DNA from: an uncultured Pseudobdellovibrionaceae bacterium
Lineage (GTDB): Bacteria > Bdellovibrionota > Bdellovibrionia > Bdellovibrionales > UBA1609
Reading direction: 5' to 3'
DNA: 64,000 nt
NCBI GenBank assembly: GCA_963803705.1
Contig: CAWDNU010000001.1
Coordinates: 429,836-493,835, forward strand
Shown here piece by piece: positions 997 through 32,570 of this stretch. Below the pieces are notes generated by a model. It did no database searches. It was not told where the DNA came from and saw only the letters and a program-made list of their open reading frames with translations. Each line of letters starts with the position of its first letter. Position 1 is the stretch's first letter. Both the position numbers and the translations under genes were made by a program.

Positions 997-2399
997 ATGT
1001 CTCAAATTGAAGTAGCGTTACCAGATGTAGGCGAAGGCGTCACAGAGGGTGAAATGGTGAAGTGGCTAGTAAGCATAGGTGATTCTGTTGAAGCAGATCA
1101 ACCCATTGCCGAAGTTATGACAGATAAAGCTACCGTTGAAGTTCCGACTGCTCAAGCTGGCGTCGTCAAAGAGTTTAAGGTGAACGAAGGCGACGTAGTT
1201 CCAATCGGTAAAGTGATGTTGGTTTTAGATTCTTCCGCTGAGAGTTCAACTGGCTCAGCAAAAGATGATCAAAAAGCCAAGAGCGATGGTCAAGAAACGC
1301 AAAGCTAAAGACGATGCTGACGATGCTAAAGGCAAAGAAGTTGAAGCAGGTGATTCAAAAAAAGTTGATCAACAAGATTCAAAGAAAAACTCTAAGTCGT
1401 CAATTGTGAGACCAGAAAAAGAGTCTTCTACTGAATCAGATGTGGTGCCTCCGGCAGCTGAATCAAAGGTTTTAGCCACACCGTCAACTAGACGTTTGGC
1501 ACGTGAAATGTCCATCGATATAAACGATCTACAAGGCTCGGGATTAGCAGGTCGAGTGACGAGAGAAGACGTGATGTCTACTTCTAGCGGAAATGCATCT
1601 GATCAAGGAAACGTTCAGCCCTTAAGCTCACCGTCCAAAGCTAAACCGACACTAAAAGATATTCCTAAAGCCGGCTTTTCAAACATTCTCCTCTGGTCAG
1701 GAGGAAAGAGTCGCTATCCGCGGCGTTCGTAAAAAAATTGCTGCAAATATGCAAATGGCTAAGCATGTGATTCCGCATTTTACTTTAATGGATGAGGCCA
1801 ATGTGACTGAACTAGTTAAATTTAGAGAGTCCGCAAAAGCTGTGGGCCAAAAGTATGGGGTGAAAATTACTTATTTGCCTTTTGTTATGAAAGCTTTGAT
1901 TGCAACGTCGAAAGAATTTCCAATGTTCAATGCAAGTATCGATGATCAAGCTGAAGAGATCGTATATAAAAAATACTTTAATCTTGGTTTTGCAGCAGAT
2001 ACGCCAAATGGATTGATGGTTCCGGTTATCCATGATGCCGACCACAAAACTATTCTCCAATTGAGTTCTGAAATCATAGATTTAGCAAATCGTGCTAGGG
2101 ACGGTAAACTTAAGCTAGAAGAGATGAAAGGTGCTACTATTACTATTACAAATATTGGAAGTATCGGGGGCAACTACGCTACTCCAATTATTAACCACCC
2201 TGAAGTCGCTATATTGGGAATGTACAAGATAACCGATAAACCGCTAATGATTAACGGCAAATTTAGACCAGCTAAAGTTATGAATTTAACAGTCACTGCA
2301 GATCACAGATTGATTGATGGCGCAGTAGCTGCAAACTTCTTAGCCTCTTTCATCAAAAAGTTGGAAAACCCAAGCGAGTTAATGTTGAATATGGTGTGA
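997..2399 (+). pseudogene. dihydrolipoamide acyltransferase (E2 of a 2-oxoacid dehydrogenase complex), split into three ORFs by two frame changes
   Basis: ORFs 997-1308, 1265-1732 and 1749-2399 lie in three successive frames. In order they encode a lipoyl domain (EVMTDKATVEVP), a charged linker plus E3-binding domain (ATPSTRRLAREMSIDINDLQGSGLAGRVTREDV), and the catalytic domain (EERVAIRGVRKKIAANM read upstream of 1749, then TVTADHRLIDGA). Frame changes map to 1229-1308 and 1653-1749. Confidence 0.8.
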
Positions 2400-6342: not shown

Positions 6343-6750
6343 TTATTGGTTTCTGATGCTTAAGCCAAGTTTCTTAACGCCACCCAACTTAATCTGATCT
6401 AATATCGATATTACATCTCCGTGTGAAACGTTTTCATCAGCGGATATTACGGCCTGTCCAGCTGGATTCTCAGAGATAAACCCTGCAGCTAAAGCTTTTA
6501 AATTTTCGAATTGGATAGGTTCGCCATTTAAAGTAATTTCTTCCTTCGATGAAACCATTAGTTGAAAAGGAGTAAACTTTGTTTTGTCACCCGTGGTAGC
6601 CTCGGGCAGTTGAATTTTTAGGGAAGGTCTCATCACAACTGGTGCTGTTACCATAAAGATTATCAATATAACTAATAATATATCTACAAATGGTACTATA
6701 TTTATATCCGAGATTAGATCATCATCGTCGTTCTTTGCTCTTTGTCCCAT
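6343..6750 (-). CDS. ExbD/TolR-family biopolymer transport protein
   Basis: 135 aa with a single N-terminal TM (INIVPFVDILLVILIIFMV) and a periplasmic domain typical of ExbD/TolR. Confidence 0.8.
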   Translation of the reverse strand: MGQRAKNDDDDLISDINIVPFVDILLVILIIFMVTAPVVMRPSLKIQLPEATTGDKTKFTPFQLMVSSKEEITLNGEPIQFENLKALAAGFISENPAGQAVISADENVSHGDVISILDQIKLGGVKKLGLSIRNQ

Positions 6751-6777
6751 CTTAAAACCTTTTGTTAAACCAGCAGA

Positions 6778-7413
6778 TTAAATTTTCTTTTTGTGCGCCA
6801 CACACAAGTCACGAATAGTATCAATGTGATTTAGCACGGATTTTGATTTTTTATTAAAAGTGTTGAAAGCAAAAGTGGCGGGTATGGCGACAAATAATCC
6901 GATCGCTGTGGCCATCAACGCTTTCGAAATTCCAATCATTACAAGACCTGGGTCACCTTGATTTGTTGCTAGACTCTGAAAGGCCTCCATCACTCCAAAT
7001 ACTGTACCTAGTAAGCCTATGAAAGGCGCATTTGATCCAATAGAAGCAAGTGGGCTTAAAAATTTATCTAGGGTGGGTCGAATATTTTGTTTATAGCTGT
7101 CCAGGTATTCTTGCAGTCCATCAGTTCCTGCATCTTTGATATAGTTGAAACCTAACTTTATAGCCTCTGCCTCGTATCCTGTATTCATATCAGTGAACGA
7201 TCTTAAAGAGCTTAAATCATTCTGATAAACCGAGTCGTGAGAAGCCTTTCTAAACTGGTCCTGAGTTTTTTTAATTTTGTTAAAAAATAAAATTCGCTCT
7301 ATAATAAAACTCACGCTTACAATACTTAGAACGATTAACAAATAAAGAGTCAAATTGTGTCCAAATTGAGCAATTATAAAAAACTGTGCAGTAAAAAAAT
7401 CCAAATTTTGCAT
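6778..7413 (-). CDS. MotA/TolQ/ExbB-family proton channel
   Basis: 211 aa, three TM segments, conserved GLLGTVFGVMEAF block; directly upstream of the ExbD-like gene. Confidence 0.8.
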   Translation of the reverse strand: MQNLDFFTAQFFIIAQFGHNLTLYLLIVLSIVSVSFIIERILFFNKIKKTQDQFRKASHDSVYQNDLSSLRSFTDMNTGYEAEAIKLGFNYIKDAGTDGLQEYLDSYKQNIRPTLDKFLSPLASIGSNAPFIGLLGTVFGVMEAFQSLATNQGDPGLVMIGISKALMATAIGLFVAIPATFAFNTFNKKSKSVLNHIDTIRDLCVAHKKKI

Positions 7414-9198
7414 GTAAAACCTCTGTTATCGAAATCAATAGTAAAGCTTACTTTAAACTTTACTCTTATCGCAACTTCTACTCTAAGTCTTTTTAGTTGT
7501 TTTTCAAACACCAAGGGCTCGCCATCATACGTCATAGTGGCAATTGATAGATTCGGAGCAGGAACCGTTTCCTGCCCGGAATATCTAGAAAAAGGAGATG
7601 GTGGATTTTTTATATTATGTAATGATTTTGTTCGAATGGCTAACGCTTACACCACATCATTACAGTCGCCAGCAGCCCTAGCAAGTCTCGTGACTGGTGA
7701 GTACCCCTTGAATCATGAGCTTAGACATCCAGATAGTTTTCTGTCCTTTAAGAACCCAACCCTAGCCCAAATATTACTGACTGAAGATTATAGGACTGGT
7801 TTTTTTTCAGAAGGCGATCCAGTTAAAAGCTACCAGGGTTTGAACAGGGGTTTTGAAACTTTCTACGATTTTTCAACTTCAACGGGTCAGGACGGCTTAA
7901 AGCAGGTTTTCAAATCAGCAACAAATTTTATCATGGAAAATAAAACGCAGCATCTTTCTTTGATCTATGTATCATCTTTAAAAAAATTAGAAGATGGCGG
8001 TGATGTTGTCGATGCATTAGAAATTCATCTGAGCGAATTATTTGATAAGCTTAAAAAAAACAAGAAGTGGCACAACACCCATATATTGATAGTTGGGTTG
8101 CAAGGATCGTTGAAACAATCTGTAGGAAATAAATGGCCAATAGTTAATTTAAATGAAAAAAACATCAAAGTGGAAGCGTTTTATAAACCTGCCACAAAAC
8201 CCAGAGACAGCGAGCTGAGTTTTCAGATAGATCGCAACATCACACTTGCGGATTTAGGCCACACACTTATTAATTCTGCCGACCCTAACCTTGCAAAAAA
8301 AGGATACAATCAAAAATTACCAGAGTTAACTTCGCCAAAATCACTAGAGTCTTACTTTAAGAAAAAAAGTGAAACAACAATGAATTCAAGTCCAGTTATG
8401 ATCGAAAGCTCTTGGCCAGACTGGCGGTACGGTTACGCGCCAATATATTCAATACTTGATGATCAATACCGGGTTTTTTTAAATAAGGATATTAAGGTTT
8501 TCAACACTTTACTAAATCAGGAAATGCCTCTTGCAGAAAGTGACCAAATAACTGATGAAAGGAAGTATTTTTATTTGGCAACCGCTTCAAAACTTAACTC
8601 TGAAGGTAAAGATCAATTCAAAGACTCTGACATTGATAAGTTTGCTTTAGGATATAAAATCTGGGGCGTTAAAGATTACAAGTACCCCGATATCTTAACA
8701 GAGCTAGAAGCTGTAACTAAATCTGAATTAGAAAGCTCTTTTGAGATTGATAATTGGATGGCTAAGCTAAGCGTATTGCACCAAGACTGTAAAAAATTGC
8801 TAGAATTAGCAGTTCGAAATAAGAATAAAAAATGGGAGCTAGCAGCCAAATCATGCTTGAATATCAAAACAAGCTTTACTAATGATTATAGAATAGGTTG
8901 TTTAAGAGTTTTTTTTAAAAAGATTAAGACTTGGTCAAATCAATGTCAAAACGATCTTCTATATCACGCATGGAAATATATTAGTTTTGAACAATCTGAT
9001 GCTCAATTTAATAATTTCAAAACCTACTATAAACAATACGCGATTAATAACGATCGGATACAAAATAATTGGAAAACTTTTTTATCCAGCGCTTTGGCCT
9101 ATGAAACTGCGATAGAGCCTACAGATTTTGAACTATACTACCTTCAGCTTTCTGATCGTCAGAAAAACTTAATCGACCAAGCCAAGAGCCCTCACTAG
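7408..9198 (+). CDS. putative lipoprotein with N-terminal sulfatase/alkaline-phosphatase-superfamily-like region
   Basis: Lipobox-like LSLFSC. The block AYTTSLQSPAALASLVTGEYPLNH resembles PF00884-type enzymes. Start uncertain (TTG 7408 or ORF-track 7357, which would overlap divergent exbB). Confidence 0.5.
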   Translation: MHVKPLLSKSIVKLTLNFTLIATSTLSLFSCFSNTKGSPSYVIVAIDRFGAGTVSCPEYLEKGDGGFFILCNDFVRMANAYTTSLQSPAALASLVTGEYPLNHELRHPDSFLSFKNPTLAQILLTEDYRTGFFSEGDPVKSYQGLNRGFETFYDFSTSTGQDGLKQVFKSATNFIMENKTQHLSLIYVSSLKKLEDGGDVVDALEIHLSELFDKLKKNKKWHNTHILIVGLQGSLKQSVGNKWPIVNLNEKNIKVEAFYKPATKPRDSELSFQIDRNITLADLGHTLINSADPNLAKKGYNQKLPELTSPKSLESYFKKKSETTMNSSPVMIESSWPDWRYGYAPIYSILDDQYRVFLNKDIKVFNTLLNQEMPLAESDQITDERKYFYLATASKLNSEGKDQFKDSDIDKFALGYKIWGVKDYKYPDILTELEAVTKSELESSFEIDNWMAKLSVLHQDCKKLLELAVRNKNKKWELAAKSCLNIKTSFTNDYRIGCLRVFFKKIKTWSNQCQNDLLYHAWKYISFEQSDAQFNNFKTYYKQYAINNDRIQNNWKTFLSSALAYETAIEPTDFELYYLQLSDRQKNLIDQAKSPH

Positions 9199-9823
9199 GT
9201 CTGCTCTTAAAGATACTTCTAATCAAACTCTCGTTATCACTACTCTTTGGATGGTAAAAGCTTTGGGGAAGTGTTTCGCTTTTTACGAATAATAACTCTT
9301 CATCTTTTTTCAAATTTGAACTTTCAACTCTAAAATTTAAACTGTTTTCCACACCCAAAAGCGCATGTGGGAGGGTCGGTGCGCCTTTAGATTTAAAAGA
9401 TCTTTGACCCATGCTATGATCTAAACCAGAAATTCCGCTTTTGGCTATTATAAATATGTGAGGCCAACCGATCTGAACCCAATATATTTTCTGATTTACT
9501 TTTTGTAACATTAAAAATTCAAATCCCTCTGAATATGAAGTTTTATTATAATTGCTGTAGATCATGTCGTTTAGGAATAATGTGGTGGTGTAGATGCGAT
9601 TTGCCATACCGCTTAAGCAAGTCAGTTTTGGAAACGGAGAGGTGACATCAAAATCTTGATTTGCAGCTAAGTATTCATTTTCACACTCGTCAAAAATTTT
9701 TTCTGTGAGTGAAGGGTCCCCGTAGCTGGTGGCCATCATAAAGAAGTTAGATTCAGCTACAAGTCGATGAGCAGGAGCAATCTGAACAAAATCCCCCCTG
9801 TAACCAATTTCAGTAAACTTCAT
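9119..9823 (-). CDS. hypothetical protein, last gene of the FHA operon (possible degenerate PP2C-like fold)
   Basis: 234-aa ORF 12 nt downstream of the preceding FHA gene; no confident family. Its 3' end overlaps the convergent gene by 80 nt. Confidence 0.5.
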   Translation of the reverse strand: MKFTEIGYRGDFVQIAPAHRLVAESNFFMMATSYGDPSLTEKIFDECENEYLAANQDFDVTSPFPKLTCLSGMANRIYTTTLFLNDMIYSNYNKTSYSEGFEFLMLQKVNQKIYWVQIGWPHIFIIAKSGISGLDHSMGQRSFKSKGAPTLPHALLGVENSLNFRVESSNLKKDEELLFVKSETLPQSFYHPKSSDNESLIRSIFKSRPSEGSWLGRLSFSDDQKAEGSIVQNL

Positions 9824-9835
9824 AAATTTTTCCTG

Positions 9836-11731
9836 TTAAATTTCTGTTTCATAGCTTTTTAATTTACTTTCGGCTTTCTGAAAATATTCTTCTTCTGGGA
9901 TGTCTCGCTCTACAATCTGTTTCCATTTTGATATAGCAGTGTGGATCTTACCTAAGTCCTCCATTAAAATGCTGTCTTGATACAAGGATCTTATTTCTAT
10001 GCGCAATAGACCTCTCGCCTCAGATTCTATTTTCACAAGTTGGGCATCAAATTCGTCAATCTTTAATCCTTTTCGTGCTGCAAGGACTGCCTCTCTGTAA
10101 TTTTCTTTCGCAAACTGTAGTTTTGATTCATCAAGAGCTTTTTTTAAAGTGCTTTCTAGGGCCGATTTGATCGAAGCTATTTCCCTAGAGGCCTTAACCC
10201 TATCATTTCCTTTGGGATCAGGGTATTTACCTTTTAAATACATACCGTACCACTTAAGAGCATCTTCCCAGTACTGCTGTTCTTTAAATTTATCACCTTT
10301 TCTTATAAGGGCTCGTCCTCGGTTAAGTCGGTCAGCGTATTTCTGCTGTCTAAGCCTAATCTCATCATTTTTTCTGTCGACTGCGTCTGCTTGATCGAAG
10401 AGCTTCGCGATCTCTTCATTTTCTGGTGAAAGTTCAATCGCTGGCTGTAAGCATAATTTTATGACATCACTTCCTTCTGTAACCTTGTCTTTGCAAGACT
10501 CTATAATTGCACTCACTTTTTCTATAATAGCCAAGCGATCTCTTTCTTGAGCTTCCATTTGGCTCTGTCTTTCCAACATCTCTAGTGCTGTTTGACATTT
10601 AACTCCGATTTCAGCAGCGTCTTGGTCATCAGGTCGTAAATCTTGGATGCGCTGGACTTCCGATAAACATAGTGACCACCTAGCCTCACCAATATATTGG
10701 ATAGCAGCAACTTTTGCGTTATCTATAATTTTGTTCTCTTCCGCACGCTGCCTCAAAGCTGCTATTTCCCTTTGAGCAGCTGATTTGTTGGAAGTTCCTG
10801 CTGGCATAAATGCAAATAGGGCAGCCAACAGAATAAAACCCGCTGTTATGCCGACTCTGACTTTCTTTTGAGGACTCCATTCGTTTAGATTAACCCAACC
10901 GTCTTTGACTTTTTTGACACCCATACCGCTATTAGTAATAGGACCATTAGCAAGATGTCCCATATCAATCGGCTTGTAGTTTTCTGGAAGATTATAAATT
11001 TGTTTTTCAACGATACTATCTTTGATTTCAAATAGTAACTTGTAGTCGTGAATTGAAATGATATCACCAGATTTGAGTTCAATTTCATTATTGGCAGGTA
11101 GTTGGTGACCATTTAAAAATGTACCATTCGAGCTTCCCAAGTCTTTAATTAAAAATTTATCATTAAGCTTGTAGACTTCGAAATGCTGTCTACTTGATTT
11201 ATCGTGATCGATAAATACATCACACGTCTTTGCTCGACCAAAAGTCCATTTATGGGCATCCATCTTGAGCTCATCAACTACACTGCCGAATTCAATTTTT
11301 TTAAAAGTTGCGACTAAATCTTGAGTACTCAAAGAAGTTTTTTCGAAATTTCCAGCATAAGTTTCTTCGGGCTGAAACTCATTAACCTGATCGTTGTCAT
11401 CTTCTTCATTTTCCAACGACTGTATTTCTATATCTTCAATTTCTTGAAGAACTTCAAAATTGTAGGGCGGTATCGAAAAGTGACCTTGCCCGATGACCTC
11501 GATGGACTTTTCACTTAGGCCGTTTACCACTAGCTTTCCTGCTTGTGATAAACGCTCCACTAGAAGCTTGTCACCCAAGTGAACTATTTTTAAATGCTGC
11601 CTAGAAATGCCGGGGAAAGATTCTAGTTTAACGTCACAAGAATCATCTCTTCCGATAACAATTTCATCACCGCTGGTAATTTTTAATTCTTGATGTGTTT
11701 CACCATCAATAAAACATTTGAGCTGAAACAT
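9836..11731 (-). CDS. membrane protein with two N-terminal FHA domains and a long C-terminal helical/TPR-like region
   Basis: FHA signatures IVIGRDDSCDVKL..SRQHLKIV and WTFGRAKTCDVFI..SSRQHFEV..DLGSSNGTFLNG. TM segment VRVGITAGFILLAALFAF. Confidence 0.8.
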   Translation of the reverse strand: MFQLKCFIDGETHQELKITSGDEIVIGRDDSCDVKLESFPGISRQHLKIVHLGDKLLVERLSQAGKLVVNGLSEKSIEVIGQGHFSIPPYNFEVLQEIEDIEIQSLENEEDDNDQVNEFQPEETYAGNFEKTSLSTQDLVATFKKIEFGSVVDELKMDAHKWTFGRAKTCDVFIDHDKSSRQHFEVYKLNDKFLIKDLGSSNGTFLNGHQLPANNEIELKSGDIISIHDYKLLFEIKDSIVEKQIYNLPENYKPIDMGHLANGPITNSGMGVKKVKDGWVNLNEWSPQKKVRVGITAGFILLAALFAFMPAGTSNKSAAQREIAALRQRAEENKIIDNAKVAAIQYIGEARWSLCLSEVQRIQDLRPDDQDAAEIGVKCQTALEMLERQSQMEAQERDRLAIIEKVSAIIESCKDKVTEGSDVIKLCLQPAIELSPENEEIAKLFDQADAVDRKNDEIRLRQQKYADRLNRGRALIRKGDKFKEQQYWEDALKWYGMYLKGKYPDPKGNDRVKASREIASIKSALESTLKKALDESKLQFAKENYREAVLAARKGLKIDEFDAQLVKIESEARGLLRIEIRSLYQDSILMEDLGKIHTAISKWKQIVERDIPEEEYFQKAESKLKSYETEI

Positions 11732-12681
11732 TAGAAGTTACCTCGTTTTTTTAAATCACATTCTAGCAGCACTTTCTTTGCTTCTCTGTAGCGCGCATTG
11801 GTCGGATCATTAAGTAGATTCATAATATTTTTCATTGATGACTTGCACACCTCAAACCGACCAGCCTGTTTATTTGCTAGCCCTCCTTTAAATTGTTTTT
11901 CCAACAGATCGTCTGAAAATTGTAAAGAAAGCCTAAGTAGTCTTCTTGCCTCTGAATGTGCAGGTTCGATTGACAAGACAGCCACAAATGCATCTCTAGC
12001 ATAGAAAAACTGCCCCCGGTCAAAGTCTCTGCGTCCTTGCACAAAAATTGATTGAGCATTACGCCCATTTTCAGTCGAAAAAATAGAGTCTTTATATTTT
12101 CTATCTAATTCTTTTATAATATCTTCAATACTGTTGATTCTTCGCTCGCTTTTCTCATTATTATCAAACGACTCGATTTTCACGCTACTACTCTTTTTTT
12201 TCACAGGCGGGGTAGTAAAGTAGTAGCCAGAACCCATAACCACTATAAACAATAGTACGTATCTGAGCCTATTTGTACCTGGTCGCAAATTATTGTCTTT
12301 CAGCTTAGGCGCTGCTTTAGGACCGTTTTCAACAAACTGCAAAACGTGATCGCCAATTTGGATCACTTCATTTTTTTTTAGCTCTACTTGCTTTGTTTTT
12401 ATCCCATTCACAAGAATAAAGTTATTTTTAGTTAGATCTTGAATAATATAAGATTGGTCTTGAAAAATTAATCGCACATGCTGTCGACTAACTTTAGAGT
12501 CATTTTTTAGTTGGATATGGTTTGATGGGTCTCTTCCAATTAAAACTTCACTAGATGATATTTGAAAAACTGCACCTCGCTCATATCCTTTATTAATTTT
12601 GATAAAGAATCGTTTTTCACTGTTATTTTGAACAATGGTGTTATTGTTTAGCTCTGAGTTTTTATGGCTTATGTTGTTCAA
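11731..12681 (-). CDS. FHA-domain membrane protein
   Basis: VLIGRDPSNHIQL..VSRQHVRLIF..DLTKNNFILVNG; TM segment LRYVLLFIVVMGSGYYF; 1-nt and 4-nt overlaps with neighbours. Confidence 0.8.
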   Translation of the reverse strand: MNNISHKNSELNNNTIVQNNSEKRFFIKINKGYERGAVFQISSSEVLIGRDPSNHIQLKNDSKVSRQHVRLIFQDQSYIIQDLTKNNFILVNGIKTKQVELKKNEVIQIGDHVLQFVENGPKAAPKLKDNNLRPGTNRLRYVLLFIVVMGSGYYFTTPPVKKKSSSVKIESFDNNEKSERRINSIEDIIKELDRKYKDSIFSTENGRNAQSIFVQGRRDFDRGQFFYARDAFVAVLSIEPAHSEARRLLRLSLQFSDDLLEKQFKGGLANKQAGRFEVCKSSMKNIMNLLNDPTNARYREAKKVLLECDLKKRGNF

Positions 12682-14249
12682 GCGTCATGCTCCACGGGGA
12701 TAAACGAAACTATATAATATGCTACTTCATGACTTCCATAAACGGCTTGCATCGCCAACTCGAAGGTGTCCCCAGAAAAATCTAGTTGATTTGATATAAT
12801 TTGGTCAGGACTCAACTTAAGTTGATCTATTAGGTCTCTTAAACTCATTTTTAAAGACTGGTCTGAAATTTGAAAAACTGTTGTTCCCTGGATATTTATT
12901 AAACCTGTACGCTCTTCGAAACCAGCATTAAATGCAGTGATTGTTTCATCGTTAGCTCGAATTGCGACTGCGGGGTAGCCAATGAGTTCGACCATATTTT
13001 GCATTTCAAAATTACGGTCTCGCTCGAAAACCTCTTCCTGTGCGGTGTCACCAACTTGTCTGTTTAAGGCGCTATTTAGGTTTGAATACAACTTTTGTAA
13101 AACAGGAAACTTAAGTTTTGTTTCCAGTTGTGCTGTTCCATTTCTTAAGTATAGGTCGACTTGTCTATTTAAAACTCGAATTGGGTAGCTTATTAATCTA
13201 GAAACAAAGAAATAAAGAATCAGTGCTACTATTAAAGACAAAGCTAGGGTTTGAACAAATAAACTTAAAGTTCTGTTAAAATCCATCATACGAGTGTCTA
13301 CGTCGTATAATACCACACCGTAATATCTAGTAGACTCAATTGATTTTTTTGGATCGTAATACTTAAAAGCTTCTATAGCTAAAATGTTCTTACTACTTAT
13401 GAATTCGATAAAAGTTTTATTATCAGCTATTTGCCGCCCTTTATGAAAGCCTTTAATTTTCGGCATCTGTCCAGCCATTCGTGCTGGAGCTACAATTTCG
13501 CCTCGAATATCCGTTATATAAGCCTGAATAACTCCCGGTTTTTGGTAAGTTGAATCAAGGTCAATTGCAGAGAAAAGACGCTTAAATAGAGGATCTTTAT
13601 TTTGGGTAATTACTTCATGAACGATATTTTGAACGTTTCTTAAACTAGACTCTTCTATACTTTCCCTTAGAATTTTCAATAAAGGTATTACAGATAGGCT
13701 TGTCGACAATACCACTACCAGTATAAAAAATAGTCCAACCACCCATTGAAAATCCATATACTCTGTCATTTTATAGATGCCTGGTAGAACGGTATTTTCA
13801 AAGTAATGATTTGTTTTTTTCTTAAAAATTTCTACTGGCGGGTCATAGGGCTGGATAATATCTGCATCATCTATATGTAGAGCTAAATCCGATACAACTT
13901 CTTCTGAATGGGTTGCTAGTTCATTTTTACCTTGAAAAAGCGCCAGCCCACCGCTCTTAGCATTTTGATCAACAACTTCTGTAACTGTATCATGAAAGCT
14001 TAACTTATCGCCGGTGTAGACTTTTGATTCGGCTATTTTAACACCGTTGATGTAGCTTCCATTTGTAGATTTTAAATCTTTCAAAATTAGCAGGTCGCCT
14101 TTTTTTTCAAGGCTTGCATGTTTCTTCGACACATTGTTGTTAGCGATAATAATATCACACTCTGGCGAGCGGCCAAGTACCGAAAGACCATCTTTTAATT
14201 GGATGACTTTACCCATTTGCTGTCCAGTTAAGATTTTAAGCGCTAACAC
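12678..14249 (-). CDS. FHA-domain sensor-like membrane protein (FHA, TM, extracytoplasmic region, TM/HAMP-like, PAS-like; no output domain)
   Basis: LSVLGRSPECDIII..VSKKHASL..DLKSTNGSYINGV; two hydrophobic segments; the C-terminal ~110 aa are PAS-like by pattern only. Confidence 0.75.
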   Translation of the reverse strand: MLALKILTGQQMGKVIQLKDGLSVLGRSPECDIIIANNNVSKKHASLEKKGDLLILKDLKSTNGSYINGVKIAESKVYTGDKLSFHDTVTEVVDQNAKSGGLALFQGKNELATHSEEVVSDLALHIDDADIIQPYDPPVEIFKKKTNHYFENTVLPGIYKMTEYMDFQWVVGLFFILVVVLSTSLSVIPLLKILRESIEESSLRNVQNIVHEVITQNKDPLFKRLFSAIDLDSTYQKPGVIQAYITDIRGEIVAPARMAGQMPKIKGFHKGRQIADNKTFIEFISSKNILAIEAFKYYDPKKSIESTRYYGVVLYDVDTRMMDFNRTLSLFVQTLALSLIVALILYFFVSRLISYPIRVLNRQVDLYLRNGTAQLETKLKFPVLQKLYSNLNSALNRQVGDTAQEEVFERDRNFEMQNMVELIGYPAVAIRANDETITAFNAGFEERTGLINIQGTTVFQISDQSLKMSLRDLIDQLKLSPDQIISNQLDFSGDTFELAMQAVYGSHEVAYYIVSFIPVEHDA

Positions 14250-14595
14250 GTAACAGATCTCCTACTTCCAAATCACCTGCTAATGATTCGGATTTAAATT
14301 CGAAGCAAGATTTAGATGTAAAACCACCCCAATTTAGTTTCCAGGGTTGAATGTTTCTCTGAATACTGGTTACTTTCAAATTTTTGTCTACGTATAAAAT
14401 ATCAATTGCAAACCTCATAAAAAAAGTGTGCACACTGTTACACCTATGAATCCATAAGCACTGATTTTTTTCTAAACTAGATCTACCAAGTAGACCTTTA
14501 GATCTTTTATAAAAAGACTTTGCGATTTCAACTTGGCTCGAAATAACACAATTCTTACTTATATTAAAAAGCGAAGCATCGGAATTCAAAGTCAC
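14236..14595 (-). CDS. DUF192 family protein
   Basis: 119 aa; CLWIHRCNSVHTFFMRFAIDILYVDKNLKV..IQPW matches the DUF192 (COG1430) pattern. Confidence 0.7.
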   Translation of the reverse strand: MTLNSDASLFNISKNCVISSQVEIAKSFYKRSKGLLGRSSLEKNQCLWIHRCNSVHTFFMRFAIDILYVDKNLKVTSIQRNIQPWKLNWGGFTSKSCFEFKSESLAGDLEVGDLLRVSA

Positions 14596-15504
14596 TTAAC
14601 CTCCACTCGAGAAACTAAGTGCTACTGGTGCAAGCACCATGATGAAAACTGCAGGCACAATAAATAGCATAATTGGAATAAGTAGGGCCTGCGATGCTTG
14701 TGCTCCTGCTTTTTCTGCCCTTACAAATCTTTCAAGTCTCATCTGAATTGACTGATCTTTTAGAACTTTTGCTATCGAAATTCCTGATTGGTCAGCGTCA
14801 GTAATAACAGCCACAAAACTTGTAATTTCTGTCAGATCAATTCTATTAGCTAAACCTTTTAGAGCATCTGATCTTGAACTTCCTAAATTGATATCTCGTA
14901 GAACAACTTGAAGTTCCATAGCTAAAATGCTTCCTTTAGCTTTTTCAGATATTCTTTGAATTGCACCAATGAAGTCCAAACCTGCTTCTGTACATAAGGC
15001 AAGAAGATCTATGAAAAATGGTAAATCCAATTGGACAGCCATATTTCTTTTCTTCTTTTCAGAGCTTGCATAAAGATGAGGAAACATAGCGCCAAAAGCT
15101 ACAACAAAGATAGCGCTGTAAAAGGGCAGTCCTAAGGCCAAAGCGAAATTTAGAGCCATTACTAAAATTGGAAAGAAGATGCCCCAGAAGATTTGAAGTC
15201 CTATAAACTCTTCGACGGTCAGCTCGTCTGCTAAACCTGAGGTGATTAATTTTTTTTCAATATTTTTTCTGTAGTTTTCGCTTTTAATTTTTTTTGTATG
15301 TTGCATAGCAAAGCTATGCACTAAGGGGCGCGAAAAATTAATAAGTGGTGATTTAGAAACTTTTGGTTCATCACCAGAGGCCCAGGCTAATGAAGAGCTC
15401 TGATCATCTGTTTTTAGAATAGTTCTGACAATAAGGTAAACACTGAAGCCAGCTAACAGTAGACCCAATATAAGAAATATGAGATTCATTGATAAACCAT
15501 CCAT
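14596..15504 (-). CDS. TadB/TadC-like type II secretion system F-domain protein
   Basis: 302 aa. N-terminal TM, central TM pair, T2SSF-like block (LDLPFFIDLLALCTEAGLDF..ISIAKVLKDQS) and C-terminal TM. No tadA or tadB neighbour. Confidence 0.75.
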   Translation of the reverse strand: MDGLSMNLIFLILGLLLAGFSVYLIVRTILKTDDQSSSLAWASGDEPKVSKSPLINFSRPLVHSFAMQHTKKIKSENYRKNIEKKLITSGLADELTVEEFIGLQIFWGIFFPILVMALNFALALGLPFYSAIFVVAFGAMFPHLYASSEKKKRNMAVQLDLPFFIDLLALCTEAGLDFIGAIQRISEKAKGSILAMELQVVLRDINLGSSRSDALKGLANRIDLTEITSFVAVITDADQSGISIAKVLKDQSIQMRLERFVRAEKAGAQASQALLIPIMLFIVPAVFIMVLAPVALSFSSGG

Positions 15505-15519
15505 AAAAGTAAGGTCCCC

Positions 15520-16137
15520 ATGCAGCTAGTTCTTGTTTCTGCTTCACCAAGACGAAGAAAAATCTTAGACAGTGCAGGTCTTAGTTTTCATACTGAGACA
15601 GTAGAAATATCGGAAATTGTTGATGAAAACCTGAATTGGGAAGACGCAGTGTCTCGAATTGCTACGGATAAACTTCAAACTTTTTTAGTTTCAGATAAGT
15701 CGTTGAAATACATAGAGTATTTGGCAATTACAGCGGACACTATGGTGTTAGTAGACAAGCAGATCTTAGGCAAACCGCAGTCTGTTCAGCAAGCCAAGGA
15801 TTTTTTAGGTCTTTTGTCTGGTCGAGAACACACGGTTATAACCGCGCTTAGCCTATATAATTCAAGATTAAAGTCTATTGATCAAATCCTTGAAAAAACA
15901 AAAGTGACTTTTTATCCCTTAAGTGACGAAGTGGTCGATACCTATATCTCTTCTGGTCAACCAATGGACAAAGCTGGGGCCTATGGGCTTCAAGATTCAG
16001 ATCACGACTTTGTTCAAAAAGTAGAGGGGTCTATCAGCAATGTAATTGGTTTTCCTATTGAAACTTTTTTAGTTTACTTAGAAAAACGTGGATTACTGCC
16101 ACTTTTCAAAAAGGATCAAGTTGGAATTAAAAAATAG
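15520..16137 (+). CDS. maf: Maf-like nucleoside triphosphate pyrophosphatase
   Basis: VLVSASPRRRKIL N-terminus and KAGAYGLQD block typical of Maf. Confidence 0.9.
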   Translation: MQLVLVSASPRRRKILDSAGLSFHTETVEISEIVDENLNWEDAVSRIATDKLQTFLVSDKSLKYIEYLAITADTMVLVDKQILGKPQSVQQAKDFLGLLSGREHTVITALSLYNSRLKSIDQILEKTKVTFYPLSDEVVDTYISSGQPMDKAGAYGLQDSDHDFVQKVEGSISNVIGFPIETFLVYLEKRGLLPLFKKDQVGIKK

Positions 16138-16813
16138 ATATGAAAAAGTGAAAGGCGAATTGGAAAAAACTTGCTCTGAAATGGCTTGTGTTAATCATAC
16201 CGATACTAAATTAATTGCGGTTTCAAAAAAGTTTTCAACTGAGAAAATTGAAGAACTTTTTAATTTTGGACAAATTAATTTTGCTGAAAACTACGTGAAT
16301 GAATTTACTGAAAAAGTTGAAAAATTAAAACACTTAGGAATAGCGTGGCATTTTATCGGCCACTTACAAACAAATAAAGTTAACAAGGTTGTGGGTTTAG
16401 CGGATTACATTCATTCTGTAGATAGTGAAAAGCTGCTGAAAAAGATTATCAGCGAATGTAAAAAAAAAGTGGTGCAACAGAAAGTGCTCTTGCAGGTAAA
16501 ATTTGGAGATGAGGAAAGCAAGCGAGGTTTTGAAATAGACCAAATTGAAAACATAATTTCTGAGTATATAAGTGATAGTAGAGTTTCAATATGTGGACTT
16601 ATGTGTATTCTTCCACTGAACATAAATGATCTAGAGAAAAAAAAATTTTTTTTACTTTTACAGAAAAAGTTTGAAACACTAAAGCTAAATTTAAATCTAC
16701 CAACTCAATTCAGAGAGCTCTCAATGGGAATGTCAGATGATTTTAGGTTGGCCATATCGGCCGGTTCGACTATGATACGTGTGGGAACTGCTATATTTGG
16801 AGCAAGACAATGA
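16121..16813 (+). CDS. yggS: YggS-family pyridoxal phosphate homeostasis protein
   Basis: LIAVSKKF (PLP lysine), HFIGHLQTNK, LSMGMSDD, RVGTAIFG motifs. Start uncertain (TTG 16121 or GTG 16088). Confidence 0.8.
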   Translation: MELKNRYEKVKGELEKTCSEMACVNHTDTKLIAVSKKFSTEKIEELFNFGQINFAENYVNEFTEKVEKLKHLGIAWHFIGHLQTNKVNKVVGLADYIHSVDSEKLLKKIISECKKKVVQQKVLLQVKFGDEESKRGFEIDQIENIISEYISDSRVSICGLMCILPLNINDLEKKKFFLLLQKKFETLKLNLNLPTQFRELSMGMSDDFRLAISAGSTMIRVGTAIFGARQ

Positions 16814-17676
16814 TCAGTGAGGTACGCGCTAAGGTGACTATCAGCCCCTTTTTGAATTCAAAAAGATTAGGCTTTATAGGGGCAGGAAATATGACTTCGG
16901 CAGTAATCTCTGGATTAACGGCTTTGGGTAAAATTTCACCTGGAAAGGTGTTAGTTGCTAGTCGCACTCAGGGTAAAGTTACGGCATTAGAAAAAAAACT
17001 AAAAATTATCGGCTGTTCGAATGTAGATGAAGTAACAGACACTGCAGATATAATCTTTCTGTCCGTTAAGCCTCAAGACTTAGGTAGCTTGCTCGACAAT
17101 ATCGGCAAAAGTATAGACGAAACACAAACAGTGGTAAGCTTCGCGGCTGGATTTAATGTTAAACTTTTAAGAAGTTACATACCGCGAGCAGGTTCAATCA
17201 TTAGAGTGATGCCGACCACAGCTGCCAAAATCAATCAAGGAATTTTAGGTTATACTTTTGAAACCAGTGAGGGACAGGTTAAGCACGAGTCTATGATTCG
17301 GGAGATCCTTTCAGTATTGGGAACGCCAATTTACGCAGCTGATGAAGAATTATTCGACGCGTTAATGGTTGGGTGTAGTAGCGGTATCGGTTTTATTTTG
17401 GAATTTATGCAAATCTGGTCTGAGTGGTTAGAAGAAAAAGGATTTTCATCGGAAGAGTCAGCTATTATGACTTCAGAAACTTTTTTAGCAACGTCCATGT
17501 TAGCAAGCTCTTCACCTGAAACCTTTGCTAAGCTTCAAAACCAAGTGTCATCAAAAAAGGGGGTAACTGGTCAGGGGCTAGAGTCTTTTAGGGAAATGGA
17601 CCTAGACCGAACACTTAGGATCGGCTTTGAAAACGCCTTGCTTAGAAGTGCAAAGCTTACTCAAAAACCTAAATAG
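16810..17676 (+). CDS. proC: pyrroline-5-carboxylate reductase
   Basis: GFIGAGNMTSAV Rossmann motif, VKPQD, and the C-terminal SKKGVTGQGLE block typical of ProC. Confidence 0.85.
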   Translation: MISEVRAKVTISPFLNSKRLGFIGAGNMTSAVISGLTALGKISPGKVLVASRTQGKVTALEKKLKIIGCSNVDEVTDTADIIFLSVKPQDLGSLLDNIGKSIDETQTVVSFAAGFNVKLLRSYIPRAGSIIRVMPTTAAKINQGILGYTFETSEGQVKHESMIREILSVLGTPIYAADEELFDALMVGCSSGIGFILEFMQIWSEWLEEKGFSSEESAIMTSETFLATSMLASSSPETFAKLQNQVSSKKGVTGQGLESFREMDLDRTLRIGFENALLRSAKLTQKPK

Positions 17677-17843
17677 ACCTCAAGTTTTATTGCAAGCGCT
17701 AGTGATGTGATTTGCTCTATTGAATCAAAGTTTATTAGTTAAAAAAATCTTTACAGTTCATAGCGCTGACTTTACGATAGTAATAGGGACACTTGATAAT
17801 TTATTTAGGTAATTTATCAGCATCTACCATAGGTTGGTCACAT

Positions 17844-18413
17844 ATGAGATTTAATTCTGTTGATATAAACGAGAAAACTTTCAGAAAAAAGATGTTTGGA
17901 CTTGATCCTGACCAAATTTTTGATTTCCTAAGAAAACTATCTGTTGAAATGGATTTAATCACCAAAGATAAAGCGGATTTAAAAAAGCAGTGTAAAAAGC
18001 TTGAGACCGATCTTGATGAGTACCGACAGCGTGATGAGTTACTTAAAAATACGATTGCTAATGCGACCAAAATGTCTGATCGAATCAGATCGGACTCCGA
18101 CCGCGAGGCTAAGTTAATAATTAATGATGCTCACCAAAAAGCCGAAATGATTATAAGGGACGCAAAAGATTCTTTAAAAAATATTTATCATGATGTGGCA
18201 GATTTGAAGCGTGTACGCATGCAGTTTGAAAATAATTTGCGGGCGCTTATTCAATCTCATATCGCTATGCTTGAGCAAGGCAAACAAATGATGCCAGATC
18301 CCCAAGTGGACGCAGAATCTTTAAGAGCTAGAATGAGCAGCGTTGGGATGAACACTAAATCTCTGTCATCAGAAGCAGGTCAAATTATTAAAAATCATAA
18401 TTTAGACCTCTGA
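17844..18413 (+). CDS. divIVA: DivIVA-family protein
   Basis: MRFNSVDINEKTFRKKMFGLDPDQIFDFL matches the DivIVA N-terminal lipid-binding domain and is followed by coiled coil. Start moved to ATG 17844. Confidence 0.8.
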   Translation: MRFNSVDINEKTFRKKMFGLDPDQIFDFLRKLSVEMDLITKDKADLKKQCKKLETDLDEYRQRDELLKNTIANATKMSDRIRSDSDREAKLIINDAHQKAEMIIRDAKDSLKNIYHDVADLKRVRMQFENNLRALIQSHIAMLEQGKQMMPDPQVDAESLRARMSSVGMNTKSLSSEAGQIIKNHNLDL

Positions 18414-31058: not shown

Positions 31059-32459
31059 CTAACCATTTAAATCGTTGTCCTCTTTTAATCCTTTCTTTTT
31101 AATTTTTTCTACAAGAGTGGTGCGATTTATCTTAAGAAGATGGGCAGCTTTATTTCTATTCCAACCGGTTTTTTCCAAAGCTTTTGTAATAAGTCTATTT
31201 TCGAACTCTAGGACTAAAAGATTATAGTCTACCCCAGAGTCAGGGATCTCTATATCATTATTAGTTCTTTTTACGACTATGTTGGAATATCTAGAAGGTA
31301 GGTCTGATAGCTCAATGACTCCTTCTCCGATAATAATCGTCAGCCGCTCTACTAAGTTTTCAAGCTCCCGTACGTTTCCGGGCCAAGAATAATTTTGTAA
31401 AGCTTCAAAAGCTTCAGCCGAAAAGCCTGAAATTCTTTTTTTCTTTTCCTGATTATACTTTTGGACAAAATAATTCACCAAAATTGGTAGATCAGATTTT
31501 CTATTTTTTAAGGAAGGAATATGAAGGGGTATCACATTTAACCTGAAGAATAGGTCTTCTCTAAATAGACCTTTTTTTATCAGTTGTTCTAGATTTTTAT
31601 GTGTAGCAGCTATCACTCGGGTGTCGATCGTGATGGGTTTGGATGATCCGACACGTTCAATACGTTTTTCTTGCAAAACTCTTAATAATTTTACTTGAAG
31701 CTTAGGACTCATGTCCCCAATCTCATCAAGAAATATGGTGCCATTGTGCGCAAGCTCAAAACGACCTTTTCGCTCTTGGTGAGCCCCGGTAAAAGATCCC
31801 TTTTCATGACCAAATAGCTCGCTTTCCAGCAAATCTTCAGGAATGGCTCCACAGTTGACGGCTATAAAAGATTTTTTAGAGCGATCGGAAGCAAAATGGA
31901 TTCCTTTAGCAACAAGCTCTTTTCCTGTGCCGCTATCACCAGAAATTAGCACTGTGGAATTTGAAGGTGCTATTCTCTCTGCTAAATCAATCACTTGTCT
32001 CATTTCTCTACTTTTACCGATGATCTGATGAAGGCCAAAGTGCTTATTGAGCTCAGATCTAAGGCGCTCATTTTCTTCTTTGATTTCCTTATGGGTTAAG
32101 GCTTTATCAACCAAGGTTATCATTTCACTGAGTTCAAAAGGTTTAGTTAAAAATTGAAAAACCCCTCGGCGAGCTGCTGTTAAAGCCACTTCAATGGTTC
32201 CAAAGCCAGTTAGTATAATAACTTCACAATCTGGTTGTTCATTTTTTATTTCGGTAAGCAGATCTAATCCGCTGCCATCTGGTAGCCTAAGGTCAACTAT
32301 GGCCAAATTAAGTTTCAATTGACTGGCCACTATAGATTCGGCTTCTCTTTTTGTCTGAGCAGTAATCACCATGTGATCATATCGTTGTAAAACTTTAGAT
32401 AAACTCTTTCTAACAATCGAATCGTCATCTACTACAAGAATCTTATAATTACTTTTCAA
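31059..32459 (-). CDS. sigma-54-dependent response regulator (NtrC family)
   Basis: Receiver domain (DLRLPDGSG), AAA+ Walker A GDSGTGKE, GAFTGA variant GSFTGA, C-terminal Fis-type HTH. Confidence 0.9.
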   Translation of the reverse strand: MKSNYKILVVDDDSIVRKSLSKVLQRYDHMVITAQTKREAESIVASQLKLNLAIVDLRLPDGSGLDLLTEIKNEQPDCEVIILTGFGTIEVALTAARRGVFQFLTKPFELSEMITLVDKALTHKEIKEENERLRSELNKHFGLHQIIGKSREMRQVIDLAERIAPSNSTVLISGDSGTGKELVAKGIHFASDRSKKSFIAVNCGAIPEDLLESELFGHEKGSFTGAHQERKGRFELAHNGTIFLDEIGDMSPKLQVKLLRVLQEKRIERVGSSKPITIDTRVIAATHKNLEQLIKKGLFREDLFFRLNVIPLHIPSLKNRKSDLPILVNYFVQKYNQEKKKRISGFSAEAFEALQNYSWPGNVRELENLVERLTIIIGEGVIELSDLPSRYSNIVVKRTNNDIEIPDSGVDYNLLVLEFENRLITKALEKTGWNRNKAAHLLKINRTTLVEKIKKKGLKEDNDLNG

Positions 32460-32570
32460 TAAATCCCCTTACCTTTGCTACTAGAGCCTCTTACACTTCT
32501 AATCATAAAGATTTTAAAAATGTCCGTCAAATTTTTAACAGGACTAAAGTGTAGCGACATAACAACGAAG

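Follow-up and report, generated by a model that had tools for sequence, protein, structure and literature searches.

An apparent counterpart of the Bdellovibrio bacteriovorus tadC operon in an uncultured Bdellovibrionales lineage, and its possible role as a regulatory scaffold of a dispersed Tad pilus platform

The Tad machine of Bdellovibrio bacteriovorus is complete but dispersed over the genome: tad locus 1 has no tadC, and TadC is supplied by a separate tadC locus that lies beside signalling genes (bioRxiv 10.64898/2026.07.08.737194). Like rcpA, tadZA and tadB, tadC could not be deleted; at the invasive pole, a TadC-mCherry fusion co-localised with the secretin RcpA and with RomR (bioRxiv 10.64898/2026.07.08.737194). 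TadC is the platform subunit of this machine, a Tad pilus that B. bacteriovorus needs both to attach to prey and to invade it. In strain HD100 the protein is Bd0470, which is the reciprocal best hit of both Myxococcus KilH and Caulobacter CC_2940, and the main tad locus encodes TadB/KilG, which is Bd0110 (Seef et al. 2021, PMC8460266 supplementary file 2). In Myxococcus, kilH is directly adjoined by the genes for MXAN_4648, which has FHA and TPR domains, and MXAN_4649, an FHA protein that is PrgH-like by HHpred (PMC8460266). Here we describe a stretch of 64,000 nucleotides from an uncultured Pseudobdellovibrionaceae bacterium (GenBank assembly GCA_963803705.1, contig CAWDNU010000001.1, positions 429,836 to 493,835; hereafter the window), in which six closely packed genes encode a TadC-like platform protein, a DUF192 protein, three proteins with four FHA domains between them, and a protein of 234 amino acids (aa). 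Judged by gene order, architecture and family membership, this block is the counterpart of the HD100 tadC operon Bd0470–Bd0475, which belongs to the Tad/Kil-like predation machinery of Bdellovibrio.

All six genes of the HD100 operon were required for predation in transposon sequencing (Tn-seq) of HD100/109J, with fitness values of 0.002–0.03 in the full screen; the data set gives TadC for the first product, an uncharacterised conserved protein for the second, FHA proteins for the next three and a hypothetical protein for the last (Duncan et al. 2019 Data Set S4, PMC6561027). A Bd0470::tn mutant showed no prey attachment, killing or rounding, and a Bd0474::tn mutant attached to prey and neither killed nor rounded it, which places the action of Bd0474 after attachment (Duncan et al. 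2019, PMC6561027). A paper of 2025 reported that Bd0473 and Bd0475 share an operon with Bd0470, Bd0471, Bd0472 and Bd0474; that Bd0474, of 674 aa, has two cytoplasmic FHA domains (2–100 and 134–241) and an extracytoplasmic TPR domain (363–673); that this periplasmic TPR domain has Bd0075, itself a TPR protein, as a binding partner in two-hybrid tests; and that a Bd0473–Bd0475 contact is predicted by AlphaFold-Multimer (PMC12034629).

The window locus resembles this operon in every gene. As in HD100, six genes stand in the order TadC, 'uncharacterised conserved' protein, FHA, FHA, 2xFHA with TPR, and hypothetical protein; tadC lies apart from the main tad genes; and a DivIVA gene is nearby (Bd0464 in HD100, 17793–18413 in the window). 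The lengths are 316 aa in the window versus 386 aa in HD100 for the second FHA protein, 631 versus 674 aa for the double-FHA protein, and 234 versus 228 aa for the last. The window comes, unlike HD100, from a different and uncultured lineage. Calling of open reading frames (ORFs) placed the six minus-strand genes at 9119–15504 (Table 1), in which tadC and the DUF192 gene abut (0 nt), the next three junctions are overlaps of 14, 4 and 1 nt, and a gap of 12 nt precedes the last gene. An earlier reading of the DNA made from its letters and ORFs only (the sequence-only reading) had given exactly these coordinates and this packing, and the T2SSF, DUF192 and four FHA domains that it named were confirmed by Pfam. 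It had also regarded the set as an orphan combination that could not be assigned to a described system, and this part has to be given up, the block matching the published Bd0470–Bd0475 set gene for gene; its observation that no tadA, tadB, pilin or secretin gene is nearby holds. The finding that it had named as fatal to its view, a displaced part of a tad locus with a known role, is close to what the comparison gave, in that Bd0470 is the separately encoded tadC of a Tad/Kil-like pilus.

Table 1. Coordinates of the tadC operon and of the adjoining spacer in the window
Feature	Position	Strand	Proposed HD100 counterpart or remark
tadC, TadC/KilH-type inner-membrane platform protein, 302 aa	14596..15504	-	counterpart of Bd0470
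DUF192 protein, 119 aa, probably cytoplasmic	14236..14595	-	counterpart of Bd0471
FHA–transmembrane–PDC/Cache-like–transmembrane–HAMP-like–PAS-like protein without kinase core, 523 aa	12678..14249	-	counterpart of Bd0472
FHA–probable transmembrane–periplasmic TPR protein, 316 aa	11731..12681	-	counterpart of Bd0473
2xFHA–one transmembrane segment–long periplasmic TPR/helical domain protein, 631 aa	9836..11731	-	counterpart of Bd0474
PP2C-fold protein without catalytic aspartates, probable pseudophosphatase, 234 aa	9119..9823	-	counterpart of Bd0475
Divergent tadC/maf spacer, 15 bp	15505..15519	.	AAAAGTAAGGTCCCC; both putative ribosome-binding sites inside

Related loci were collected by a genome scan with an eight-sequence alignment of the 523-aa protein, using one genome per species, and were compared by calling ORFs in the fetched loci and searching these with the window proteins. 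The order tadC–DUF192–FHA523–FHA316–2xFHA–234aa, on one strand and tightly spaced, was found in 44 loci and in one divergent groundwater "Deltaproteobacteria" metagenome-assembled genome (MAG), that is, in about 45 species-level genomes, which include Bdellovibrionales MAGs, Pseudobdellovibrio, the complete genome of Bdellovibrio sp. qaytius, and Bacteriovoracaceae; in the three Bacteriovoracaceae loci (L042, L044 and L047) no match to the 316-aa and 234-aa genes was detected. An order shared by about 45 independent genomes cannot be attributed to chance, and the co-occurrence of T2SSF, DUF192 and FHA genes that the sequence-only reading had proposed to look for is thereby established. The median junctions among the relatives are 2, −11, 6, 2 and 2 bp, and the closest locus, in a Bdellovibrionales MAG, shows 79% identity (L004). 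In most loci the operon is flanked upstream by the divergent proC–yggS–maf genes and downstream by a sulfatase-like gene followed by exbB–exbD. The best conserved product, by a wide margin, is TadC, with a median identity of 54% to the window protein as against 23–39% for the accessory proteins; compared with the orthologues of the genus Bdellovibrio, in whose genomes tadC is likewise the first gene of the same operon, the values are about 54% for TadC and about 20–30% for the accessory proteins. No tadA, tadB, pilin or secretin gene was found within 10 kb of tadC in the roughly 45 genomes, so that tadC is detached from the other tad genes in all lineages of the phylum that were sampled.

This isolation, together with the housekeeping character of the flanks, is what one would expect of a true orphan, in which the TadC-like protein would not act with a Tad pilus at all but would form, with the FHA proteins, an independent membrane module for signalling or secretion. 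Each protein of the TadB/TadC type has a single GspF domain, and the two are believed to function as a pair. An independent module is hard to reconcile with the reports cited above, according to which Bd0470 is the TadC of a Tad machine whose tad locus 1 has none, is found with RcpA and RomR at the invasive pole, resists deletion as do rcpA, tadZA and tadB, and has KilH and CC_2940 as reciprocal best hits; we consider such a module very improbable. The explanation that we hold to be probable is that the block is the Bdellovibrionota tadC operon and that it provides a scaffold for a dispersed Tad pilus platform.

The individual products are in keeping with a tadC operon. TadC contains one Pfam T2SSF domain (PF00482, 4e-16, residues 164–291 of 302), and a hydrophobicity scan gave segments at 8–26, 97–126 and 273–291, which fits a polytopic inner-membrane topology. 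The PDB sequence search yielded no match for it; its close homologues bear the Joint Genome Institute (JGI) name 'tight adherence protein C'. The second protein matches Pfam DUF192 (2e-16), and in the loci compared its gene always stands directly behind tadC. Its only PDB sequence match, the uncharacterised protein 3m7a, is weak, and a search for literature on DUF192 together with pili returned nothing relevant. With the start codons as chosen here, neither the window protein nor any of its orthologues (0/43) has a hydrophobic N-terminus or signal peptide, whereas Bd0471 is annotated as having a signal sequence (Duncan et al. 2019, PMC6561027). The window protein has no transmembrane segment either, and is thus probably cytoplasmic.

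The FHA domains were recognised by Pfam in the 523-aa protein (4e-15), in the 316-aa protein (3e-14) and, as two stretches, in the 631-aa protein (2e-29); NCBIfam gave only FHA-type matches for the operon proteins, all of them sub-threshold. The sequence-only reading had placed all four domains in the cytoplasm, ahead of a transmembrane segment, and this is borne out, since hydrophobic segments follow the FHA domains at 170–188 and 335–353 in the 523-aa protein (hydrophobicity scan) and at 293–311 in the 631-aa protein; the corresponding stretch of the 316-aa protein, at about 139–157, is weaker, was picked out by eye and falls below the threshold of the scan. Behind the hydrophobic segment, TPR_2 matches were found in 15 of 19 orthologues of the 316-aa protein, and TPR matches (TPR_2) occur in the post-transmembrane region of the 631-aa family in 8 of 20.

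The residues that contact phosphate are preserved in all four FHA domains. Among the 38–44 orthologues aligned, the Arg and the Ser are each kept in at least 37 of 38; in window numbering the pairs are R27/S41 in the 523-aa protein, R50/S65 in the 316-aa protein (R50 in 38/39 and S65 in 39/39 members of the family), and R28/S43 and R166/S180 in the 631-aa protein. The 523-aa protein retains the full canonical set, with G26, R27, S41, H44, S61, N63 and G64 invariant in 44 sequences. The loop Asn is kept in 32 of 39 members of the 316-aa family and, for the C-terminal FHA domain of the 631-aa protein, in 36 of 38, where the His is replaced by Gln in 22 of 38. In Foldseek comparisons the FHA fold was closest to phosphothreonine-binding FHA domains (GarA, OdhI, FhaA, and B. 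bacteriovorus DgcB with phosphopeptide), ahead of YscD of the type III secretion system (T3SS).

These data bear directly on the main rival, which we rank below the reading of the locus as a tadC-operon scaffold. According to this rival, the FHA–transmembrane–periplasmic proteins would build a phospho-independent structural ring, an SctD (YscD/PrgH)-like cage around TadB/TadC that needs no kinase. All three proteins match Pfam Yop-YscD_cpl with 53–66 bits against a cut-off of 33.2, their topology of FHA domain, transmembrane segment and periplasmic domain is that of SctD, YscD (4a0e) and the T3SS protein 4d9v are among the fold matches, MXAN_4649, encoded beside kilH, matches PrgH by HHpred (Seef et al., PMC8460266), and the window has no kinase. 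The near-invariance of the Arg and Ser in all four FHA domains, at an overall identity of only about 24–29%, would however be unexpected if phosphate binding were unnecessary; moreover, matches to the phosphothreonine-binding FHA folds (GarA, OdhI, FhaA, DgcB) outrank those to T3SS proteins, and on the periplasmic side the proteins have TPR or PDC/Cache-like domains in place of the ring-building motifs of SctD. On these grounds we judge a structural ring of the SctD kind to be unlikely. To our knowledge, the FHA-like domains of SctD proteins lack the phosphate-contacting Arg and Ser.

The 523-aa protein has the most elaborate architecture of the three. Its AlphaFold2 (AF2) model (pLDDT 78.6) consists of the FHA domain at 1–95, a disordered linker, a first transmembrane segment, a periplasmic part made of a long helix followed by an alpha/beta module that is PDC/Cache-like, a second transmembrane segment, a HAMP-like helical hairpin and a C-terminal PAS-like domain, so that the HAMP/PAS-like region guessed at in the sequence-only reading is supported by the model. 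The best PDB match of the model, over 412 columns, is the sensor kinase WalK (9a5d_A, E 6e-12; Foldseek), and the FHA part matches the FHA domains of GarA, OdhI, FhaA and DgcB. Sensor histidine kinases of the WalK type share the layout of transmembrane segment, extracytoplasmic PAS/Cache domain, transmembrane segment, HAMP and PAS; unlike these, the 523-aa protein has no DHp and catalytic ATPase domains and has an N-terminal FHA domain instead. Pfam detected no HisKA/DHp or HATPase_c domain in it, and the AF2 model ends after the PAS-like domain. As modelled, it joins an FHA domain to a sensor half that resembles WalK, and the kinase core is missing. About 40 clusters of full-length homologues were obtained, with identities down to 27%, and in the one-genome-per-species scan full-length relatives were limited to Bdellovibrionota.

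The 234-aa protein, which the sequence-only reading had left without assignment in an operon said to lack any output domain, has indeed no match to a Pfam family; at the level of the fold, that description is only partly true. The AF2 model, which is a confident one (pLDDT 75.8, pTM 0.77), has the alpha-beta-beta-alpha sandwich of PP2C proteins and gave a list of PDB matches in which the top 50 (Foldseek; TM-score 0.62–0.65) were all PP2C/PPM phosphatases or PP2C-like domains, including tPphA (E 4e-11), PstP, MspP, Stp1, PppA (6jkv, E 8e-9), RsbX, SpoIIE and the C-terminal domain of RssB. A profile of the family likewise has tPphA at the top of its PDB matches, with a weak E-value of 0.002, and weak Pfam matches to SpoIIE are found in 10 of 47 relatives (best 8e-5), or in 13 of 47 when SpoIIE and PP2C are taken together. 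The aspartates that coordinate metal in PP2C enzymes (tPphA D18, D34, D193 and D231; motifs RxxxED, DGxGG, SDG and DN) are not kept in the family. No aspartate is invariant in alignments of either 29 or 47 members, D119 and D193 of tPphA align to non-acidic residues in the profile alignment, and the DGxGG motif is replaced, as judged by eye, by T/S-P/x-W-G. Since a PP2C fold is combined with a lack of conserved metal-binding aspartates, the 234-aa protein is probably a PP2C-fold pseudophosphatase.

An exhaustive HMMER search with the 234-aa protein gave 263 clusters of stand-alone proteins; the listed matches are mostly about 215–235 aa long, and none among them is a longer or recognisably canonical PP2C. 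A word-indexed homologue search found only relatives of at least 53% identity. A Phyre2 note 'serine phosphatase' for Bd0475 is present in Data Set S4 (Duncan et al. 2019, PMC6561027), and the main texts of PMC12034629 and of bioRxiv 10.64898/2026.07.08.737194 do not mention a phosphatase likeness of Bd0475.

A PP2C fold beside four FHA domains brings to mind the threonine phosphorylation switch of the type VI secretion system (T6SS), in which case the 234-aa protein would be a working PP2C eraser that resets an FHA assembly signal, as in PpkA–PppA–Fha1. The PppA match, the weak SpoIIE/PP2C matches, the co-transcription with the FHA genes and the Phyre2 note on Bd0475 all point in this direction; the missing invariant aspartate, the non-acidic residues at tPphA D119 and D193, the altered DGxGG motif and the want of a Pfam match for the window protein point away from it, and we regard an active eraser as quite improbable. 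Filing the 234-aa protein as an active phosphatase was rejected on the absence of invariant metal-binding aspartates.

Among accounts of how the tadC operon works, we find it most likely that it supplies the Tad platform with a regulatory scaffold in the inner membrane that depends on phosphothreonine and is served by kinases encoded elsewhere. TadC would be the inner-membrane platform partner of TadB in a dispersed Tad pilus (type IVc, Kil-like), of which the ATPase, TadB, the secretin and the pilins would be encoded at other loci. Its five co-transcribed partners, namely the three FHA proteins, the DUF192 protein and the PP2C-fold protein, would form the scaffold at the TadB/TadC platform, and the periplasmic modules of the three membrane proteins, one PDC/Cache-like and two TPR, may sense or transmit contact with the prey or the envelope. 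On the cytoplasmic side, the four FHA domains would dock on phosphothreonine made by Ser/Thr kinases from elsewhere, for example a Bd3148-like kinase. Two threonines, both in flexible stretches of proteins that otherwise diverge, are the best candidates for such docking sites, as judged by their invariance: Thr132, in the linker between the FHA domains of the 631-aa protein (38/38; motif E-N-E-[RK]-T-V-[IM]-G), and Thr61, in a loop of the PP2C-fold protein with pLDDT <50 (29/29; motif [DE]-x-[DE]-[VA]-T-[ST]-P-F). The PP2C-fold protein, without catalytic residues, would probably bind a phospho-site or act as an adaptor rather than as an eraser, and the assembled scaffold may gate the recruitment or activity of the Tad motor at the step from attachment to invasion.

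A more elaborate version can be envisaged, in which the operon is a self-contained phospho-switch cassette: a distant Hanks kinase would mark Thr132 and Thr61, the membrane-tethered FHA domains would recognise the marks and form a ring around TadB/TadC, and the WalK-like sensor without a kinase core and the periplasmic TPR arms would license assembly only on contact with prey. We give this version a small but real chance of being correct. We know of no description of a type IV filament machine in which a pseudophosphatase, once phosphorylated, serves FHA domains as a docking adaptor.

When nearly all sizeable ORFs of the 64-kb window were scanned, Pfam detected no Pkinase/Hanks kinase, T2SSE ATPase, pilin, secretin or prepilin peptidase, as the sequence-only reading had stated for the kinase, ATPase, pilin and secretin, and no T6SS or T3SS genes. 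Candidates for predation-essential Ser/Thr kinases lie elsewhere in HD100, for example Bd3148, which is PknG-like and has a fitness of 0.003 (Duncan et al. 2019, PMC6561027), and the absence of a kinase from the window is therefore not anomalous. The functional guess of that reading, a membrane scaffold that depends on phosphorylation and is linked to the platform protein of a pilus, fits the invariant FHA Arg and Ser, the matches to phosphothreonine-binding FHA folds and the literature, even though its view of the system as unassignable does not stand.

Several points weigh against the reading of the locus as a phosphothreonine-dependent scaffold of the tadC operon. In the N-terminal FHA domain of the 631-aa protein (38 sequences), another residue stands where the peptide-binding loop would have its canonical Asn, and the Ser/Thr/Gly loop positions of the 316-aa FHA domain are variable. 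All three FHA proteins exceed the gathering cut-off for Yop-YscD_cpl (scores above), which leaves room for a phospho-independent structural role. Orthology to HD100 was drawn from synteny, architecture, lengths and family membership in genomes of the genus Bdellovibrio, the HD100 genes themselves having been compared by description; when the 12 published interface residues of Bd0474 were checked by position, at best 5 of 12 were found, in the nearest Bdellovibrio genome compared (L037). Finally, tadA, tadB, the pilins, the secretin and the kinases are assumed from relatives to be present in the source genome, of which the 64 kb of the window were seen.

The start of the operon is unusually compact. 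The maf gene (Pfam Maf, 1e-46; 15520–16137) begins 15 bp from the tadC ATG at 15504, which agrees with the spacing first read from the letters; the distance becomes 30 bp if tadC starts at Met6 instead. Within the spacer, AAGG precedes the maf ATG, and the tadC ATG has GGGGA ahead of it on the opposite strand, so that two Shine–Dalgarno-like motifs stand back to back. Across 31 genomes, the median distance between the divergent maf and tadC genes is about 30 bp. With start codons only 15–30 bp apart, both promoters must sit within the neighbouring coding sequence. A consensus scan for sigma-70 promoters and terminators over the operon gave counts not above those of shuffled sequences, and no usable tadC promoter emerged from it.

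At the other end of the operon, the PP2C-fold gene and a convergent sulfatase-like gene at 7357–9198 share 80 nt at their 3' ends (9119–9198); the product of the sulfatase-like gene may carry a lipoprotein signal (…LFSC, by eye). Several related loci also show a convergent overlap, there of 25–75 nt. Just past the sulfatase-like gene lies an ExbB/MotA–ExbD pair (6343–7413, minus strand), the position of which beside the tadC operon is kept in most Bdellovibrionota loci. On the maf side, a division-associated cluster (16088–18413, plus strand) contains yggS-like (Ala_racemase_N), proC and DivIVA genes; in the Pfam scans P5CR and YggS fall at 16088–17676 and DivIVA at 17793–18413.

The remaining ORFs of the window are housekeeping or unrelated genes according to the Pfam scans, among them genes for lipoate and 2-oxoacid dehydrogenase functions, valyl-tRNA synthetase (ValRS) and an RNase R-type protein (OB_RNB/RNB/S1 domains), together with thyA, folA, purD, glmU, glmS, Mla, fpg, lexA and aro genes. 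At 997–2399 (plus strand) a 2-oxoacid dehydrogenase E2 gene appears to be split into three ORFs in three frames (997–1308, 1265–1732 and 1749–2399), of which the second encodes the E3-binding domain and the third the catalytic domain from profile position 20; this suggests two frameshifts, due either to a pseudogene or to indel errors in the assembly. In the aro cluster, a 653-aa ORF at 55499–57460 (plus strand) combines a shikimate kinase domain (18–79) with the N-terminal domain of shikimate dehydrogenase (405–465) and may be a fusion protein. At 31059–33977 (minus strand), a sigma-54-dependent response regulator (REC–AAA–HTH_8) stands beside a 468-aa protein in which Pfam detected HisKA only, with no HATPase_c at E ≤ 0.001.

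The locus is not a new system, and the practical value of the analysis lies in correct annotation: where a genome of the Bdellovibrionota has an "orphan" T2SSF gene with DUF192 and FHA genes behind it, the set should be annotated as the tadC operon, which belongs to the Tad pilus used in predation. The operon itself, its role in predation and the Phyre2 'serine phosphatase' likeness of Bd0475 are already published. What is new here is the sensor architecture of the 523-aa protein, the assignment of the 234-aa protein as a probable pseudophosphatase, the conservation of the FHA Arg and Ser, and the invariance of Thr61 and Thr132. The comparative results, namely conservation across about 45 species, four preserved FHA phosphate sites, a WalK-like sensor without a kinase, a PP2C fold without aspartates and two invariant threonines, offer handles on how these predators couple contact with the prey to the step from attachment to invasion, and they name specific residues that could be mutated in the genetically tractable B. 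bacteriovorus.

Beyond HD100, the locus can be set beside three described systems. With SctD (YscD/PrgH) of the T3SS its FHA proteins share a cytoplasmic FHA fold, a single transmembrane segment and a periplasmic domain; unlike SctD, they keep the phosphothreonine-binding residues, their periplasmic parts are TPR or PDC/Cache-like, and no T3SS genes are nearby. Cluster 2 of the Myxococcus xanthus Kil system (MXAN_4648–4651, PMC8460266) is, like the window locus, part of a Tad-derived predation machine rich in FHA proteins, and in both the FHA genes (MXAN_4648 and MXAN_4649 in M. xanthus) stand beside a TadC-type gene, a likeness drawn at the level of the FHA domains. In M. xanthus, however, kilH stays beside kilG (tadB), the pilin genes and kilB, the listing of cluster 2 contains no DUF192 gene, FHA–Cache–HAMP–PAS sensor gene or PP2C-fold gene, and the Kil ATPase itself has an FHA domain. 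The closest functional analogy is the PpkA–PppA–Fha1 pathway of the T6SS. In Pseudomonas aeruginosa, TagQRST–PpkA–PppA–Fha1 couples the sensing of envelope contact to the assembly of a machine that spans the envelope, by way of an FHA protein with a partner of PP2C fold, as we propose here for the tadC operon. The window locus differs from that pathway in that it has no kinase, its PP2C-fold protein is without catalytic aspartates, its FHA domains are tethered to the membrane, and the machine that they would serve is a Tad pilus rather than a T6SS.

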